From NCBI GenBank assembly GCA_020349685.1, contig CP070698.1, positions 1,595,851-1,610,195 of the forward strand: a DNA stretch of 14,345 nucleotides, given 5' to 3'. Shown here one piece after another: positions 3,907 through 14,345 of this stretch; within the stretch, counting starts at the first letter, position 1; the number at the start of each line of letters is the position of its first letter. The position numbers and the translations under genes were made by a program. Below the pieces are notes generated by a model that did not search any database, was not told the DNA's origin, and worked only from the letters and a program-made list of their open reading frames with translations. Origin of the DNA: a bacterium (GTDB taxonomy: Bacteria > BMS3Abin14).

Positions 3907-3937
3907 TTGACAGAACCAGTATCTGTTGTTAGATATT
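3907..3937 (+). promoter_or_regulatory. Putative sigma70 promoter with a short dyad overlapping the -35 and spacer
   Basis: Perfect TTGACA at 3907-3912 after an AT-rich tract, imperfect -10 candidates (TGtTAGATAT, 3927-3936), and ACAGA-N7-TCTGT at 3910-3926. Confidence 0.5.
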
Positions 3938-3982
3938 CGCAGTTGCCTTTGGAGGGGCGAGGAACTGTTTCGGAGGAGTATC

Positions 3983-4408
3983 ATGAGGAAATATTTCATC
4001 ATCGGTTCGGTTGTGGCCTTTGTCCTGATAGCTGTTTCGGTCTTCGCTCTCCAGGCTAAAAGCGGAAAGGTCGCAGTGGCTCAGGAGGTCCAGCCCCTGG
4101 CTGCCTCCGCATCCGGTTCCGGCTGCGGTGCCGGGGGCTCCGGTTGCGGTGCTGCCGGTTCGGTAGGCTGCGGCGGCGCTGCAGGAGGCTGCGGCGGCGA
4201 GGCGGTGGACCCGGCTGAGGCCAGGATCCGCCAGGACAAGATCATCGCTTACCTGCAGGACTACTACACGACCAGATTGGGCTATCAGAGTGTCGAGGTA
4301 AAGATCGACGACTTCGGCTGCCACCAGGAGGCTGTCGTTTCCAGTGCCGGCAAGGTCATCGACAAGCTCTCCGTGAGCGGGAACACGATAACGAAGATAG
4401 AAGGATAA
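3983..4408 (+). CDS. Exported or membrane-anchored protein (141 aa) with a Gly/Cys-repeat linker and a DFGCH motif; possibly metal-binding
   Basis: Strong RBS GGAGGAG before ATG 3983, preferred over the ORF-track start at 3926. Signal-like N-terminus MRKYFIIGSVVAFVLIAVSVFA, repeat SGCGAGGSGCGAAGSVGCGGAAGGCGG, and a C-terminal domain containing DDFGCHQEA. Confidence 0.8.
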   Translation: MRKYFIIGSVVAFVLIAVSVFALQAKSGKVAVAQEVQPLAASASGSGCGAGGSGCGAAGSVGCGGAAGGCGGEAVDPAEARIRQDKIIAYLQDYYTTRLGYQSVEVKIDDFGCHQEAVVSSAGKVIDKLSVSGNTITKIEG

Positions 4409-6904: not shown

Positions 6905-7027
6905 TGCTTTTTACATGTGGATGGCGAAGGGGGATGGCTGAATCGTGCAGCTAGAAGGAGCCTTCATCAAATGCTCAGCCTCTCTTCTTTTCGTTTACCT
7001 GCGTTCTGAGAAAGGGGTTTAGGGGCC

Positions 7028-8029
7028 ATGCCGCGGTTGATCTCGAGGGTCCTGGTTAGGGTTGTCGTCTGCGGACTCATCCTGGCGGCAGCCGGAACGG
7101 TTCTTTCCTGCGCTTCGCTCAAGTCAAGCCGTCCCATGGTTCCCATGAGAGAGTACGAAAAGGTCCTCGTGGGCTCCCTCTTCGCAGATTACGTGGGGAA
7201 TGAGGCCTGCCTTTCCGCCTGCCACCAGCACGATCAGACCGCCCAGTTCCTCCAGGAGAGCGTCCATGGTCATCAGAAGGTCGAGGGTACCGAGATGCCC
7301 CTCGTCAACTGCGAGACCTGCCACGGCCCGGGGAGCGAGGCCATCGAACAGGATTTCGTCAACAGGAACGCCCGGTGCGACACCTCCAAATTCATTCCCC
7401 TTAAAAGCCTTCCCGCCGCAGCCCTTTCCATGCTCTGCCTCAAGTGCCACAGCTCCTACTCCATGGCCAACATGCAGTATTTCCCCTTCAGCGATCACGC
7501 GCTGGGTGAGGTCAGCTGCTCGGATTGCCACAAGCTCCACAAGAGCTCCGAGCAAAAGCTCAAAGGCGCCGATATCAGCAAGCTGTGCATGAGCTGTCAC
7601 GACACCGTGCGGGCTGATTTCTCCTTTTCCAACAGGCACCCCGTTCCGGAGGGCAGGATGGTCTGCACGGACTGTCATGAACCCCACGGCAGTCAGGCCC
7701 CCCGCGGGCTCGTCGCCCTGGATCAGAAGGGGCTGTGTGTCAACTGCCACGGACAGGTCGTCGGCCCCTTCGCCTGGGAGCACGCCGACGTCACCGACGA
7801 ATGCACGACCTGCCATTCGCCCCACGGGTCCGTGTTCGCCGACATGCTCAAGATCCAGCAACCGTTCCTGTGTCTCCAGTGCCACTCGGGACACTCCGAT
7901 CCCGGCACTCCGGACTCGCCTTCGCCAATCGTCAAGGGAGCCTTTTACACACGCTGTTCCAACTGTCACTCTCAGATACACGGTTCCGATACGAGGGGAC
8001 CGCATCCGGGCAGCGGCCTGATCCAGTAG
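7028..8029 (+). CDS. DmsE/MtrA-like decaheme c-type cytochrome, probable lipoprotein
   Basis: Nine CXXCH motifs (CETCH, CLKCH, CSDCH, CMSCH, CTDCH, CVNCH, CTTCH, CLQCH, CSNCH) plus one CX3CH (CLSACH). MtrA-type signatures CHGPGS, HPVPEG.M.C.DCHEPHGS, GPFAWEH, PFLCLQCH and CHSQIHGS. Lipobox-like VLSC at Cys28. Confidence 0.92.
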   Translation: MPRLISRVLVRVVVCGLILAAAGTVLSCASLKSSRPMVPMREYEKVLVGSLFADYVGNEACLSACHQHDQTAQFLQESVHGHQKVEGTEMPLVNCETCHGPGSEAIEQDFVNRNARCDTSKFIPLKSLPAAALSMLCLKCHSSYSMANMQYFPFSDHALGEVSCSDCHKLHKSSEQKLKGADISKLCMSCHDTVRADFSFSNRHPVPEGRMVCTDCHEPHGSQAPRGLVALDQKGLCVNCHGQVVGPFAWEHADVTDECTTCHSPHGSVFADMLKIQQPFLCLQCHSGHSDPGTPDSPSPIVKGAFYTRCSNCHSQIHGSDTRGPHPGSGLIQ

Positions 8030-8059
8030 GGCGATCGATCCTATCAGCTGGAGGGTCAA

Positions 8060-9943
8060 ATGAGGGGAAAGAGGTTAACAGTACTGACCGCCGCTTTCAT
8101 TACCCTTTCCATCTTCCTCGGTGGGACGGCCTTTGCCGCTCAGGCCGAGGAGCAGGAGGAAGGGTGCGAGGACAGGGCCCAGAGCGGGTACGGGCTCTGC
8201 GTCGGCTACGACGAGCTGTCCATCGACGGTGGAGGCGAGACGATCCTGCCCTACAGGCACCTCGATTCCCATGCACTGTTAAAGGCCCATTACAGGAAAC
8301 CGCTGTGGGACGGACGCCTGGACCTCAGCTTCAGTTACGAGGGGGAGGACTACTACAAACTGGATAGTGAATTTTACGGTGTGACCGATACGGTGACCTT
8401 CAGGTCCCAGAAGTTCGTGAGGAATTTAGAGCACCAGAACCTGCCAGGCCCTTCGAGCACCGCGGGGTCACCCCTTTACTGGTCCGAGGACCTCGATCCG
8501 GGAGATTCCTACCACGTGGACCTCCAGGAGCATTACGCGAGCTTCAAATACAAGTGGCACACCTACCCGGCCAACGTTTCGATAGCCGTCAGACAGTACG
8601 TCGCGGAAGGACAAAAGCAGCAGCTTTTCCTCAATGAGAACTGCACCACCAACTGTCACGGCCTTTCCCAGACGAGAAAGGTCAAAACAACCACGGAGCA
8701 GGTCTTCCTCAACGGTACAACGCATCTGGGGCTCGTGGACGTTTCCTACCACTACAAGGGCACGCAGTTCACCGATGACATGGCGGACCCGGTCTACGCT
8801 TTCGGTACCATCTCGAGCTTCGCGGGGACGAGGGATGTCCACAACACCTATCCGGACATGGATTCGACGGAGCAGCTCGTAAGTGTCAGCACCAACCACA
8901 CGGGCCGCTTTTCCGGACTCTTCGGTCTCGGCACCGGGGAGAGGGAGAACCTGGATTCGGATGTTTCGGAAAAGTATCAGCAGTTCCTGGGCCGGTTCCT
9001 CTGGCGCCCCAATGAGACAGTGGCGGTCTTCCTCGATTCCAAGCAGAAATATCAACAGGATGACAGGCCGCCGGCATCCCTGGCTTCGGACAGGTTGGCC
9101 GACGGATCCCCCCTGCGTTACGGAACTGTCCTGAACCGGCACAAGCTCACGGTCAGCTACTATCCCATAGACATCCTTGATCTAAAAGGGGAGTACGCCC
9201 TCACCGACACGGAGCGGGAGGACAACGAACTGTGGGGACTTCCCGAAGATACCTCCTCCAGCGAATGGCGCCTGACGGCCCGTATAAGGCCTGGACCAAA
9301 ACTCAAGTTCAAGGCGGACTATACCGACAGGTCCACGGACAACCCCACTTACCGGTCGTCTCCCACCGAAAGCCGCAAGCTGCACCTTTCAGGCCAGTGG
9401 GTCCCGGCAGGCGGGCTGTGTATCGATGCCGACCTCAGAGACTTTGACGACGAGAACAGCGACAGCGGCCAGGTCAGCGACCGGCAGATCCTGGGGGCCG
9501 CTGTGACCTATACCCCTCCAAGCCCCGTTTCTCTGGCCGTCCGGGTTTACAGGTTCACCAACGACATTTCGGCCGATCTCACCTTCGCCGACACGGCCCC
9601 CACACCCATCACCGATGAGGAGGTCCCCTACAAGGCCGAAGGCACGCAGTACCTGCTGCAGGCTGTCTGGAACGCCAGCAAGAAGCTCCAGCTGACCGGC
9701 CAGTACAGCTATCTCCAGGCCGAAGGGGCCTACGACGCGGATATCGCCGGTTTTGCCGACGTGGAGAGCTACTCGGGACTGGATGCCGTCCAGAAGGAAT
9801 CGTCCCTGGACCTTCAATATACCTTCAAGGAAGGTTTGTGGCTTTCCGGGCGCCTGGCTCAGCTGTCCTATGAGGACAGCAAAGGCGGTTTTCCGGACGA
9901 GGATGTCAGTGAAGTCTCAGCTTCGCTGACGAGGAAGTGGTGA
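8060..9943 (+). CDS. MtrB/PioB-like outer-membrane beta-barrel (porin of a porin-cytochrome conduit)
   Basis: 627 aa with a Sec signal ending AFA-A, alternating aromatic/hydrophobic strands joined by D/E/S-rich turns, and a C-terminal aromatic beta-signal (VSASLTRKW). Directly follows the decaheme gene. Internal CTTNCH. Confidence 0.82.
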   Translation: MRGKRLTVLTAAFITLSIFLGGTAFAAQAEEQEEGCEDRAQSGYGLCVGYDELSIDGGGETILPYRHLDSHALLKAHYRKPLWDGRLDLSFSYEGEDYYKLDSEFYGVTDTVTFRSQKFVRNLEHQNLPGPSSTAGSPLYWSEDLDPGDSYHVDLQEHYASFKYKWHTYPANVSIAVRQYVAEGQKQQLFLNENCTTNCHGLSQTRKVKTTTEQVFLNGTTHLGLVDVSYHYKGTQFTDDMADPVYAFGTISSFAGTRDVHNTYPDMDSTEQLVSVSTNHTGRFSGLFGLGTGERENLDSDVSEKYQQFLGRFLWRPNETVAVFLDSKQKYQQDDRPPASLASDRLADGSPLRYGTVLNRHKLTVSYYPIDILDLKGEYALTDTEREDNELWGLPEDTSSSEWRLTARIRPGPKLKFKADYTDRSTDNPTYRSSPTESRKLHLSGQWVPAGGLCIDADLRDFDDENSDSGQVSDRQILGAAVTYTPPSPVSLAVRVYRFTNDISADLTFADTAPTPITDEEVPYKAEGTQYLLQAVWNASKKLQLTGQYSYLQAEGAYDADIAGFADVESYSGLDAVQKESSLDLQYTFKEGLWLSGRLAQLSYEDSKGGFPDEDVSEVSASLTRKW

Positions 9944-10909: not shown

Positions 10910-13036
10910 ATGATCAATTTCACCAGACTGTCCCTGAAGGTCAAGGCTGCTGTTTTCATTGCGGTTATCCTGGTGCTCGTGATCGGAGTCACGACGATGA
11001 TCTTTTCGTCGGAGGTCAACAAGCGCCTGGAAAAGGCCCTCCTTGCGACAACCACCCTGGTTGGGCAGAGTCAGGTCGACGAGATCAAGAAGACCGTTGA
11101 CATGGGGATCTACCTTTCCGAGCTCGACGGGCTGTCCATTCAACTCACGCAGGTGGTCGAGCAGGACGCCACCCTCGGGTACATATACGTCGCCGACAAA
11201 AAAGGTTCCATGCTGTATTTCAGCGAAGGGATGCCGGAGTGGGTGCGTGGACAGGTCCGGGTACCGGAGGCTTTCCTGGAGGATACCCAGACGCCGGTGA
11301 CCGACCTGATCCGCTCCGGAGGGGAAGGGTTCTACCAGATCTCCATCGCCATCGATTCCATGGGCACCCTGGAGGGATACCTTGCCATCGGTCTCAAGGA
11401 AAGGGTGATCTCCCAGCAGCTCAAGCAGATCAACCGGCGCATGGTGCTCATCGGGCTCCTGAGCTTCCTCGTGGCCACCCTCCTGATCATCGTCTTCGTC
11501 AACAGACTGATCAGCCTCCCCCTCACGAGCCTGGCGGGCACGGCCAGGCAGATCTCCGACGGTAACATCGTGGAGCCTGACCTGGATCCGCGCCACGATG
11601 AGATCGGGGAGCTGTCCGGCGCCTTTGCGGTCATGGCCAGGGAGCTCACTGCCATGATAGGAAGGTTTTCGGAAACATCCTCCAGCCTCCAGAGCTCTTC
11701 CGTGGAACTGGCCTCCGTTGCGGGCAACCTCACCAGATCCTTCGGGAAACAGATGGAAACCCTCGAGGGGGTTGTCACGGCCATCCAGGAGATGGACGGA
11801 CTGGCCCAGGACCTTTCCAGACAGGCCATCAACCTCAGCGACACGGCCAACGAATCCTCCGCCTCCATCACGGAATCCACCTCGGCCATCGGGGAGATCA
11901 ACACCAACATGGCCGAGATCAACGAGGCCATCGAGAACATCACCTCCTCCATCCTGCAGATGTCCGCCACCTTCGGCGAGCTGGCCGAGGGAGCCGATGA
12001 GACGGCGAAGCTGGGGGAAGAGTCCATGGACGCCGTTGCCAGGATCAACGAGGGCGTCAAGAACATGGAAAAGATGGTGGACCAGTCCAAAACCCTGGCC
12101 GAGGATCTGCGGGTCAACGCCCAGGACATAGGGTCCAAGGCGGTGCGGGAAACCCTTCAGGGGATCCTTTCCATCAAGGAGGACGTCCAGAATTCAGAGC
12201 AGGCCATGAAGCTCCTTAACGAGAAAGTGGACAGCATCGGAGACATCGTCACCGTCATCGAAGGCATCGCCGACCAGACGAACCTTCTTGCCCTCAACGC
12301 CGCCATCATCTCGGCCCAGGCCGGGGACGAGGGCAGGAGCTTTGCCGTGATCGCCTCCGAGATCCGGGAGCTTTCAGCCAGCACCACCGAGTCCACGAAG
12401 AAAATATCCTCGGTCATCCAGTCGGTCCAGCAGGAAGCCAGGAGTTACACCAACTACGTAAAAAGGGTCAGTCAGAGCGTGGAGGAGGGCTATAACCGGG
12501 GCCTCCAGGCCACAGAGGCTCTCGACAAGATCGTGGAGTCGGCCAACGACTCGGCCAGGATGTCGGGAGAGATCTCCCAGGTGACGCGGGAGCAGGCGTC
12601 GGCCAGTGAGATGGTGGCCAGCAGCATCGAGCACTTCACCAAACGGGCCGATGTCATCAGGCGCGCCACCTCGGAAGAGGCTCAGACGGCGAAGTTCATC
12701 CGGGAGTCCATCGAGAAGGCCAAGGGAATGGTGGAAAAGGTGTACCGGTCCACCGAGGAGCAGAACAAGACGAGCCAGATGATCAACGACATGGTCATCA
12801 AGGCCGAGGAGATCGCGGGAAGACTTCAGCAGGCCACAGAGAGAGAAAAGGACCTGGCCATGTCCATCACGGGCTCCGTGGAGTCCCTGAAAACCCTGAG
12901 CCAGGAGAATTTTGGAATGGTGAAAAGCGTCGACTCGTCCTCGGAAATGCTCACCAACCTGTCTTCTTCCCTGGGCAAGGAGTTGGGGCGGTTCAAGATA
13001 GGTGACGGCGGAAGAACAAAGGACGAGGAAGCATAA
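10910..13036 (+). CDS. Methyl-accepting chemotaxis protein (2 TM, periplasmic sensor, HAMP, extended signalling domain)
   Basis: TM1 ~13-32, ~145-aa periplasmic domain, TM2 from ~178, HAMP (PLTSL…DEIGELSGAF), and hairpin tip IADQTNLLALNAAIISAQAGDEGRSFAVIASEIRELS. No C-terminal NWETF-type pentapeptide. Confidence 0.95.
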   Translation: MINFTRLSLKVKAAVFIAVILVLVIGVTTMIFSSEVNKRLEKALLATTTLVGQSQVDEIKKTVDMGIYLSELDGLSIQLTQVVEQDATLGYIYVADKKGSMLYFSEGMPEWVRGQVRVPEAFLEDTQTPVTDLIRSGGEGFYQISIAIDSMGTLEGYLAIGLKERVISQQLKQINRRMVLIGLLSFLVATLLIIVFVNRLISLPLTSLAGTARQISDGNIVEPDLDPRHDEIGELSGAFAVMARELTAMIGRFSETSSSLQSSSVELASVAGNLTRSFGKQMETLEGVVTAIQEMDGLAQDLSRQAINLSDTANESSASITESTSAIGEINTNMAEINEAIENITSSILQMSATFGELAEGADETAKLGEESMDAVARINEGVKNMEKMVDQSKTLAEDLRVNAQDIGSKAVRETLQGILSIKEDVQNSEQAMKLLNEKVDSIGDIVTVIEGIADQTNLLALNAAIISAQAGDEGRSFAVIASEIRELSASTTESTKKISSVIQSVQQEARSYTNYVKRVSQSVEEGYNRGLQATEALDKIVESANDSARMSGEISQVTREQASASEMVASSIEHFTKRADVIRRATSEEAQTAKFIRESIEKAKGMVEKVYRSTEEQNKTSQMINDMVIKAEEIAGRLQQATEREKDLAMSITGSVESLKTLSQENFGMVKSVDSSSEMLTNLSSSLGKELGRFKIGDGGRTKDEEA

Positions 13037-13088: not shown

Positions 13089-14345
13089 ATGAAGGTTCTC
13101 GACAGATCGATGAGGGTCCTGTTTGCAGCCTTGATACTGGCCATGTCCGCGTGTGGCAATCCCCTGAAAAACAGCAGTACGGACGATGTCTCCTTTACGC
13201 CCCAACCCCTTGGTATGGACTACTGCTACGACTGCCACAATAGACCGGGTTCCACGCAGGCCTACGAACAGGTGTTTGAGGAGTGGGTCGTCAGCAGGCA
13301 CTCCAATTTCGACTATTACGACACCTCGACTGGCAACCACGTGGCGCTGGACCCCTTCAACCTGGGGAGCTACTCTTACTCCGATGTTACAGGGTATCCC
13401 AGCTACTACTCCAACCCCTCCATCTATTCGAACAATTGCCGTCCCTGCCACATGGGGGCCGACGACGGGGGGTGGATCCTTGATGCCAACGCAGGTGGAA
13501 CCATCTTTGCCACGCCAAACCTGGGTGAGCAGTACCGTTTCCTCATCGACTGCGAAGGCTGCCACGTGAGCGGGCAGGGACACTTCGGCAGGTCCTCACC
13601 CCCTGAAGTTGCCATCCCGGCGTTTCACGAATGCACGGAATGTCATCCTCCCACGGCCGATTTCATGATCCTTCACCCCGCCTTTGCGGGGGCGGACCAT
13701 TTCGACCATCACGGGCCCGATTCAGCACGGACGTGGTTCGACGGTATTTTGGCCATCAACGACCTCCTTAGTTTCGGGGACCCGGCTCCTATTGACATCA
13801 CGTCGATGGTCCTCGGCTCCCAGTCTTTTGACGCCTACGTCATCAGCGCGACGTGGCTTGCCGCCAATGGAGGTTCCTGGATCTTTGATCCCCACGAGAC
13901 CATCAACGACAGCCATTACCAGGGCATCTGGATCACCAACGTTCCCAACGAAATGGTGGTTTACGAGGTTCCCACCTCCAAGTTCGGCTACGTGAACCTG
14001 GACAACGACTCCCCCAACACCGGGATGGCCAACGCCGATTCCCCGGACGCTTGTACCGCCAGCTGCCACGACGCCCACCAATTCGACCTCGCTATAAATG
14101 AGCAGTGGTACCACGGGGCCCATCACCCCAATATCCAGGGTCCTCTGGGAACGACCACAAGCCGGGGCCGGATCGTGGTCGATGTGCCCGGACCCGCCAA
14201 CTGGGGGGCGGTGGACCACGGTTTTAGCGCCAGCTGCTACAGGTGCCACAATGCCATGGGATTTGCCGAGGTGGCCCCCGGATACGGGGATGCCGTCCAG
14301 ACCCCGACTGGATCGGACGGTTTCATCACCTGCAACGCCTGCCAT
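13089..14345 (+). CDS. Outer-membrane multiheme c-type cytochrome lipoprotein, OmcB/OmcC-like, 3'-truncated by the window edge; not in the ORF track
   Basis: Hand translation from ATG 13089 (RBS GGGAG) gives 419 codons with no stop: MKVLDRSMRVLFAALILAMSAC-GNP (lipobox, Cys22), then CYDCH, CRPCH, CEGCH, CTECH, CTASCH, CYRCH and CNACH. Context motifs EEWVVSRH, CEGCHVSGQGHFG, INEQWYHGAH and CYRCHNAMGF resemble OmcB-type cytochromes. Confidence 0.88.
   Translation, partial: MKVLDRSMRVLFAALILAMSACGNPLKNSSTDDVSFTPQPLGMDYCYDCHNRPGSTQAYEQVFEEWVVSRHSNFDYYDTSTGNHVALDPFNLGSYSYSDVTGYPSYYSNPSIYSNNCRPCHMGADDGGWILDANAGGTIFATPNLGEQYRFLIDCEGCHVSGQGHFGRSSPPEVAIPAFHECTECHPPTADFMILHPAFAGADHFDHHGPDSARTWFDGILAINDLLSFGDPAPIDITSMVLGSQSFDAYVISATWLAANGGSWIFDPHETINDSHYQGIWITNVPNEMVVYEVPTSKFGYVNLDNDSPNTGMANADSPDACTASCHDAHQFDLAINEQWYHGAHHPNIQGPLGTTTSRGRIVVDVPGPANWGAVDHGFSASCYRCHNAMGFAEVAPGYGDAVQTPTGSDGFITCNACH

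Follow-up and report, generated by a model that had tools for sequence, protein, structure and literature searches.

A conserved C-X3-C-H motif on a predicted outward loop of an MtrB-type outer-membrane barrel as a candidate heme c attachment site

Can the barrel that sheathes an outer-membrane electron conduit carry a heme of its own? In the textbook picture, drawn from the MtrCAB structure, the barrel acts as a passive insulator without any cofactor, and a separate surface cytochrome gives electrons outward. The question was raised by a 14,345-nucleotide stretch of bacterial DNA (GTDB lineage BMS3Abin14; assembly GCA_020349685.1, contig CP070698.1, positions 1,595,851 to 1,610,195 of the forward strand), called the window here, in which a predicted MtrB/PioB-type barrel (P0001, the query) is encoded directly behind a decaheme cytochrome (P0002). 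An earlier reading of the letters alone, referred to below as the sequence-only reading, had noticed C195-T-T-N-C-H200 in the barrel and had proposed that the porin may carry its own heme c in a loop. Our analysis supported that proposal, as the spacing of the motif varied among relatives around an invariant C-H, with the covalent heme as a prediction. We consider it fairly probable that a c-type heme is attached at C195-X3-C199-H200, a motif on the outward loop L4 of an MtrB-type sheath that meets the outer end of the decaheme. The genes at 7028–8029 and 8060–9943 are best explained as encoding an MtrAB-like trans-outer-membrane electron conduit.

The codons tgc acc acc aac tgt cac (8642–8659, forward strand) were in frame in the barrel's open reading frame (ORF) and encoded the motif between the flanks QQLFLNEN and GLSQTRKV, just as the sequence-only reading had them. 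A c-type heme site consists of two Cys that form thioether bonds and a proximal His right after the second Cys. The canonical form is C-X2-C-H, and the barrel has the known but less common form C-X3-C-H. The cytochrome c maturation (Ccm) system of Escherichia coli accepts CX3CH and CX4CH. A text search of PMC9084895 gave no mention of CXXXCH (papers are cited by PMC number). Described heme c motifs include CX2CH, CX3CH, CX4CH and longer forms (PMC11492766), and CX3CH and CX4CH were counted as heme c motifs in two genome surveys (PMC5566968, PMC10734462). Both cytochromes neighbouring the barrel use CX3CH as well, so the motifs of the window evidently point to a system that matures CX3CH hemes. 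Two features expected of a c-type cytochrome were present in the barrel, namely a C-Xn-C-H motif and export via the periplasm, the latter indicated by a signal-like sequence and the barrel fold. When the residues of the barrel protein were shuffled 200,000 times, CX3CH arose at a frequency of 7.2e-4 and any CX2-4CH at 2.2e-3, and no CX2-4CH-type motif was found in the nine non-cytochrome ORFs of the window. The barrel CX3CH is more than a chance occurrence, and its conservation is far beyond chance.

A word-indexed search found 32 close homologs of 32–99% identity, one of which (P0032) was a fragment without the region. The C-X3-C-H was kept in all 31 that span the site, within conserved surroundings of the form L-N/D-E-N-C-x-T-x-C-H-x-x-S-x-T-R. 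When 1.84 billion cluster representatives were searched exhaustively, 208 proteins matched at E ≤ 0.001, and the superfamily alignment was built from the query and 149 of the best 150 of these 208, with P0012, a member of the query's close family, left out. Ten rows did not cover the site, leaving 140 representatives including the query. A C-Xn-C-H was present at the site in 46 of them, with n = 2 in 15, 3 in 18, 4 in 10, 6 in 2 and 8 in 1, while the segment of the other 94 contained no Cys at all. None of the 140 showed a partial state, be it two Cys lacking the His or a lone Cys. The flanks of the motif were conserved in motif-bearing and motif-free rows, and therefore the site is homologous in both groups. 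An aromatic-rich turn of the G-S-G-Y/F-F-N type replaced the motif in the motif-free rows, and in P0042, which is nested among the motif-bearers, both Cys and the His were replaced together. The sequence-only reading had proposed conservation of both Cys and the His in homologs as a check on its idea, and the close family and the 46 representatives bore it out.

A FastTree phylogeny of 131 full-length rows, from which the motif columns had been removed, required three changes in motif presence; shuffled assignments required about 36 on average, and 0 of 500 were as low as three. Presence again required three changes in an IQ-TREE phylogeny of 66 rows, where the spacing of the 43 motif-bearers had to change at least 13 times and the query (CX3CH) was the sister of P0038 (CX2CH) with a support of 99. 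Because the two Cys and the His come and go together, and because the C-H stays fixed as the spacing drifts, a heme c site is favored over a disulfide or a metal site.

Two groups of relatives deserve separate mention. P0043 and P0049 carried C-X6-C-H and P0080 carried C-X8-C-H at the same site; if these motifs bind heme, they would be longer natural spacings of the heme c motif. The three most distant close homologs (P0035–P0037, 661 residues) had an extra canonical CXXCH near residue 62, at the place where the query has C36...C47, and judged by their motifs this group possibly consists of diheme barrels. P0042 is a member of the 661-residue sister group; its N-terminal CXXCH was present, and its internal Cys/Cys/His were gone.

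Where the motif sits was addressed with structure prediction. The AlphaFold2 (AF2) model of the barrel, made from a 141-row alignment, had a predicted local distance difference test (pLDDT) score of 89.8, a predicted template modelling (TM) score (pTM) of 0.83 and 26 strands. Its top Foldseek match was 6r2q_B, the MtrB of the Shewanella baltica Mtr complex (E = 5.7e-19, TM scores 0.69/0.67, 13% identity), and the next matches, mostly 22-strand TonB-dependent transporters, had TM scores of 0.49 or lower. No significant sequence match in the PDB was obtained with the 141-row profile (best E = 0.096), and a search with the motif-free relative P0061 gave no match at E ≤ 10. The link between the barrel and MtrB comes from the fold search with the predicted model only.

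Within the model, residues 193–198 formed a turn and C199-H200 started strand β8, so that the motif was the tip of the hairpin of β7 (171–192) and β8 (199–222), the two longest strands of the barrel; this agreed with its placement between predicted strands in the sequence-only reading. Hydrophobic alternation and Chou-Fasman propensity were too noisy for strand counting. The motif was placed in L4 by the length-variability track and a strand count by eye, and AF2 confirmed this placement. Counted from either terminus, L4 is the fourth of 13 odd-to-even connectors, which ranged from 4 to 27 residues (mean 11.8), and the 12 even-to-odd connectors ranged from 2 to 5 (mean 3.6). Length varied across the alignments in the odd-to-even connectors and not in the even-to-odd ones. 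With the segments drawn by eye, net charge was −43 over 241 loop residues and +7 over 88 turn residues. Tight periplasmic turns, extracellular loops of up to ~45 Å and a conserved negative extracellular surface of the MtrB family were described for MtrCAB (PMC7198977). Because the loop-rich acidic face of the query matches that of MtrB, and by the convention for outer-membrane proteins, L4 and its motif would face the extracellular side.

The hairpin itself does not depend on the motif for its length, as the median was 52 residues in motif-bearing (n = 43) and 53 in motif-free (n = 88) representatives, and the candidate heme site therefore appears to have been set on a pre-existing structural element. 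Aromatic residues (F/Y/W) at the tip, aligned to query residues 192–201, averaged 1.5 in motif-free vs. 0.21 in motif-bearing representatives. Such aromatics, at the outer end of the decaheme, might have a role in electron exit of heme-free conduits.

The barrel (residues 27–627) was co-folded with the decaheme (residues 29–333) and two free, unattached hemes. The interface score ipSAE was 0.92 (0.92, 0.92, 0.93), and the best of three controls reached 0.00. Of 157 solved complexes, 116 attained this ipSAE mark, as did 2 of 215 mismatched pairs, counts that are only a rough guide to this co-fold, for which our own alignments were used and a ligand was included. The runs shared at least 85% of contacts, with a partner pLDDT of at least 78. 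Barrel residues 188–191, 193, 195–196, 199 and 201 were among those contacting the decaheme in the best run. Structure prediction, which the sequence-only reading had suggested for placing the loop, thus put the motif on the L4 tip in contact with the decaheme.

The lowest-error residue pairs joined barrel residues 178, 180, 212 and 214, some 9–11 residues above the turns, with decaheme residues 238–243 (heme site 7), and barrel residues 503 and 524, some 14 residues above the turns, with decaheme residue 280, just before site 9. Decaheme residues 44–126 (sites 1–2) were outside the interface. By these contact pairs, the lipid-anchored N-terminus of the decaheme lies near the turns and its C-terminal hemes lie near the loops, which is the orientation of MtrA in MtrB (PMC7198977). 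The tip of L4, 24–25 residues above the turns, would be at or past the last decaheme hemes in this model.

Features of the window that bear on the conduit are collected in Table 1.

Table 1. Coordinates of the conduit genes, their features of interest and the genes downstream (positions in the window).
Feature	Coordinates	Strand	Basis
DmsE/MtrA-family decaheme c-type cytochrome P0002, probable lipoprotein, 333 aa	7028..8029	+	TIGR03508
MtrB/PioB-type outer-membrane barrel P0001, 26 predicted strands	8060..9943	+	627 aa, ATG start, AF2 and Foldseek
Probable Sec signal peptide, residues 1-26, AFA end before AQ	8060..8137	+	Sequence reading
H125, weak candidate for distal axial ligand, on the neighbouring L3 arm	8432..8434	+	Enrichment in motif-bearers
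Predicted hairpin β7 (171-192)/β8 (199-222), loop L4	8570..8725	+	DSSP of AF2 model
C195-T-T-N-C-H200, candidate c-type heme attachment site, L4 tip	8642..8659	+	Sequence, conservation, AF2
ABC-type substrate-binding protein, PF04392	9945..10901	+	Pfam, 87.8 bits; starts 1 nt past barrel stop
Methyl-accepting chemotaxis protein, HAMP and MCPsignal	10910..13036	+	Pfam
Multiheme c-type cytochrome, 3' end open, lipobox-like N-terminus	13089..14345	+	Motif list, translation

We infer a covalent heme on the barrel, its sidedness and its relay function, and the steps would be as follows. The unfolded barrel precursor would be exported by Sec, and the periplasmic cytochrome c maturation system would attach heme to C195 and C199, with H200 as the proximal ligand. 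The β-barrel assembly machinery (BAM) would then fold the barrel around or alongside the decaheme. The L4 heme would come to lie at the outward mouth beside the last hemes of the decaheme, as an eleventh, surface-side relay, and through it electrons would be exchanged, in either direction, with minerals, partner cells or the lipoprotein cytochrome encoded downstream. The distal ligand of the candidate heme could be H125 or H261. The position of H125 was His in 34 of 40 motif-bearing vs. 22 of 77 motif-free representatives, and H222 and H261 were near-universal in both groups. Positions that co-varied with the motif were found in loops L3 and L5 (D144, P147, D239, P244, F248 and G249).

The sequence-only reading had also allowed for a disulfide or a metal site, and both fell back as conservation was examined, since the spacing varied among the aligned sequences while the C-H was invariant. 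A structural disulfide between C195 and C199, made by periplasmic Dsb before insertion and stapling the L4 tip, with H200 unrelated to it, is an unlikely explanation in our judgment. Two Cys three residues apart at the tip of a hairpin can form a small loop, and the other Cys of the barrel (C36, C47 and C454) are at the opposite, turn-side end of the AF2 model, so that C195 and C199 could pair only with each other; the equally long hairpin of the heme-free relatives indicated, moreover, that the tip needs no cofactor to exist. A disulfide would not account for the His directly after the second Cys, present in all 46 motif-bearing representatives and in all 31 close homologs that span the site, for a spacing that varies between 2 and 8 around a fixed C-H, or for the joint loss of all three residues in P0042.

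The same drift bears on a metal ion (Fe, Cu or Zn) bound by the Cys-Cys-His at the outer mouth, perhaps with H125 or H261, as a site for Fe(II)/Fe(III) substrate or one with a structural or sensing role. Ligand spacing at metal sites is usually fixed, whereas here n ranged from 2 to 8. Cys2His is a common set of metal ligands, H125 was enriched in motif-bearers, and co-varying positions in L3 and L5 and acidic surroundings would suit such a site. However, the adjacent C-H is the specific signature of heme c, and the barrel would pass unfolded through a compartment that matures CX3CH hemes. We hold a metal site to be just as improbable as the disulfide. Less probable still, and rather remote, is a barrel without any cofactor of its own, in which H200 or a Cys serves a partner's heme as an axial ligand or by packing against it, this heme being either the last one of the decaheme or one of an external cytochrome. 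The contacts of motif residues with the decaheme in the co-fold would fit this role, and the aromatics at the tip of heme-free relatives (1.5 vs. 0.21) suggested packing against something; yet the 10 hemes of the decaheme are already matched by 10 conserved non-proximal His of its own, and a need for two Cys would be unexplained. A c-type heme attachment site is therefore preferred here.

Several observations weigh against a heme on the barrel. The covalent heme is a prediction, and the motif is the non-canonical CX3CH. An approximately unbiased (AU) test rejected a tree uniting the motif-bearers (difference in log-likelihood 180.6, p-AU = 2.4e-8), with the qualification that the tested group was named after the tree had been seen and that FastTree flagged long branches, including P0042 with P0045. 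By this rejection the motif-free P0042 and a 10-row clade are therefore nested among motif-bearers, through losses or parallel gains; with P0042 and that clade lacking it, the motif is dispensable in evolution. No distal ligand specific to motif-bearers was found among the aligned representatives, as H125 was only enriched, and the conserved His of the decaheme included no spare one for an eleventh heme. A covalent heme on an extracellular loop must cross the outer membrane during folding by BAM, for which we know of no precedent. Sidedness comes from convention and the likeness to MtrB, the confidence of the hairpin tip was moderate (mean pLDDT 69 over residues 191–200), and, as MtrAB complexes have already been solved, the co-fold score may reflect that likeness and not this particular pair. 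The barrel ORF matched no Pfam family at E ≤ 0.01, PF11854 included, and did not match TIGR03509; with 82.1 bits against NF041027 (E = 3.8e-23, cutoff 350), it is outside that curated family. Finally, a literature search that left subscription journals mostly outside its reach turned up no work in which a heme on OmcL or on an MtrB/PioB-type barrel was tested or discussed.

The barrel would nevertheless belong to the MtrB/PioB superfamily, by transitive homology only. All 73 representatives compared matched NF041027 below its cutoff (best 279.4 bits), and 16 of them also matched TIGR03509 below cutoff; 17 of the 45 motif-bearing representatives reached the PF11854 cutoff of 23 bits, as did 20 of the 28 motif-free ones, and PF11854 was present in 55% and 52% of the members of the nearest ESM Atlas clusters. 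The 26-strand fold and an adjoining DmsE/MtrA-family decaheme, modelled inside the barrel, are what an MtrB-like protein would show. NF041027 is named the 'GSU2204 family CXXCH-containing (seleno)protein' in NCBIfam and comprises an MtrB/PioB-like barrel, OmcL of Geobacter. The group closest to it that was reached, that of P0174, scored 239–310 bits, all below 350, with a CXXCH aligned to the query motif; C195, C199 and H200 were invariant in 16 of 16 sequences of its alignment. The AF2 model of P0316 (pLDDT 89.5, 26 strands) had CSQCH at residues 184–188, at the tip of the same β7–β8 hairpin. The motif of GSU2204 itself thus appears to be homologous to that of the query, as traced through near relatives and not through GSU2204 directly.

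GSU2204 was listed as 'cytochrome c family protein, putative' beside GSU2203 (OmcK), and both were upregulated on hematite and magnetite (PMC4070692). In a study of syntrophic sulfate reducers, the porin of an 'OmcKL' conduit was OmcL and its cytochrome was OmcK, in a cluster noted to be without a third cytochrome (PMC10553843), and the part of the supplement that was covered named OmcL only in a list of trees. Like the query, GSU2204/OmcL is an MtrB/PioB-like barrel that accompanies a DmsE-like decaheme and contains a single heme-type motif. It differs in having CXXCH rather than CX3CH, and the query and its decaheme are below the curated cutoffs; the GSU2204 family also has a selenocysteine form (PMC13188914), whereas the query ORF needs no recoding. 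A heme-type motif on such barrels had therefore already been flagged by annotation, and as far as our searches reach it has apparently never been examined. The sequence-only reading had started from the heme-free sheath of Shewanella MtrB. This held for Shewanella MtrB, which has no cofactor, MtrA and MtrC carrying the full set of 20 hemes of the MtrCAB complex (PMC7198977), but it could not be extended to the whole family, for which NF041027 and the name OmcL already indicated a CXXCH-bearing barrel.

Comparison with better-known barrels showed how far the likeness goes. Shewanella MtrB (6R2Q chain B), like PioB and MtoB, is a 26-strand sheath of a decaheme with tight turns and long acidic loops, as is the query by prediction. 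Unlike Shewanella MtrB, the query carries the motif, has no MtrC-family neighbour and is accompanied by a decaheme with a conserved lipobox. Cyc2 is an experimentally shown outer-membrane c-type cytochrome (PMC13741234, PMC5566968), modelled as an N-terminal cytochrome domain, its motif near residue 45, followed by a porin of 16 strands (PMC13741234). Cyc2 and Cyt572 of iron oxidizers resemble the query in being a barrel polypeptide with one c-type heme (in the query, the motif only), and Cyc2 shows that a heme-bearing barrel precursor can mature and insert. However, Cyc2 works without a multiheme partner, whereas the query barrel would surround a decaheme, and the motif of the query is inside the barrel, between strands 7 and 8 of 26; no sequence relationship between the two was seen. 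The 'monoheme' proteins of a paper on a Methylobacter bioanode were rejected as examples, as they are cytochromes separate from the barrel.

The remaining Cys of the barrel, C36, C47 and C454 (8165–8167, 8198–8200 and 9419–9421), were kept in most of the close family. In the model C36 and C47 precede strand 1 and C454 is just past the periplasmic turn T9, all opposite the motif side. C36 and C47 may form a disulfide in the N-terminal segment, and they are reminiscent of the N-terminal CXXC of Shewanella MtrB, which the sequence-only reading had mentioned. The available passages of PMC7198977 did not contain this CXXC. GGAGG was located 7 nt ahead of the ATG of the barrel gene, the C-terminal residue of the protein was W, and its N-terminus was modelled as a helix at 4–19 followed by a low-confidence segment at 20–34.

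The partner of the barrel is encoded 30 nt upstream of it. It passed the DmsE-family model TIGR03508 (243.3 bits, cutoff 192.2) and scored 224.3 bits against NF041028, the GSU2203/OmcK family, below the cutoff of 325. Its heme sites numbered 10, and site 1 was a CX3CH (CLSACH, residues 61–66, nt 7208–7225) that was of this form in all 62 aligned DmsE-family homologs, named Geobacter proteins included. C61, C65 and H66 were invariant in these homologs, as was C28 (7109–7111) in a lipobox-like sequence. The decaheme subunit is probably a lipoprotein on the strength of that sequence, whereas Shewanella MtrA is not known to be one. It had 10 proximal His and exactly 10 other conserved His.

Downstream of the barrel gene, the ABC-type protein, the chemotaxis protein and the multiheme cytochrome followed at gaps of 1, 8 and 52 nt. 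No convincing terminator was found between these genes by a promoter and terminator scan whose matches did not exceed chance, and Rfam and tRNA scans of the window gave no match. The downstream cytochrome had six CXXCH and one CX3CH (CTASCH, nt 14052–14069) and matched generic cytochrome families only; it is a possible external redox partner of the conduit. No MtrC-family gene adjoins the barrel in the window. The ABC-type protein and the chemotaxis gene beside the conduit hint at a coupled taxis or sensing function. Operons joining DmsE/MtrA-like, MtrB/PioB-like and ABC substrate-binding genes were reported for Geobacterales in a survey of Desulfuromonadia cytochromes (PMC11492766), and the order of decaheme, barrel and ABC substrate-binding gene in the window is like that of those operons. 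Farther upstream the window encodes TrkA and TrkH, alanine dehydrogenase (on the minus strand), a cupin protein and a thioesterase. A 160-residue ORF with six Cys (3926–4408), located between the trkH and alanine dehydrogenase genes, had no Pfam or NCBIfam match; it was overlapped by a 131-residue ORF on the opposite strand, and its coding status is therefore uncertain.

The close family is rare among sequenced genomes. Close-family patterns, too specific for the wider superfamily, were scanned against 185,579 species representatives, one genome each, and of 72 pattern matches two were confirmed. One of these, in Nocardia (L002), was discounted as a match of only 35 residues. The other (L001), on the chromosome of an unclassified bacterial metagenome-assembled genome, shared the order TrkH ... 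cupin, thioesterase, decaheme and barrel with the window, a comparison of synteny with this one genome. Its barrel ORF (6989–9517) crossed a stretch of N and continued as an unrelated type II/IV secretion ATPase, an assembly join; a barrel-ATPase fusion protein was rejected, since the run of N is an assembly gap, and the downstream context was unusable.

Beyond this locus, about one third of MtrB/PioB-like representatives (46 of 140) might carry a covalent heme on an extracellular hairpin that caps the decaheme, giving a two-protein, eleven-heme conduit whose own surface port replaces a docked MtrC-type cytochrome. We put this wider reading forward tentatively, as one that may well prove too broad. 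If true, a BAM-inserted barrel would for the first time be seen to bear a covalent redox cofactor on an extracellular loop, and a heme-loaded loop would pass the outer membrane while the barrel folds, which would revise the view of what the BAM machinery can export. The scoring of hemes and conduits in genome surveys would be affected as well, as a barrel with a single motif is easily passed over as a porin. If the L4 heme is real, the sheath would be redox-active in a large and old branch of the superfamily, and this would change how two-gene conduits, such as OmcKL of Geobacter and of the syntrophic partners of methane-oxidizing archaea, reach external partners.

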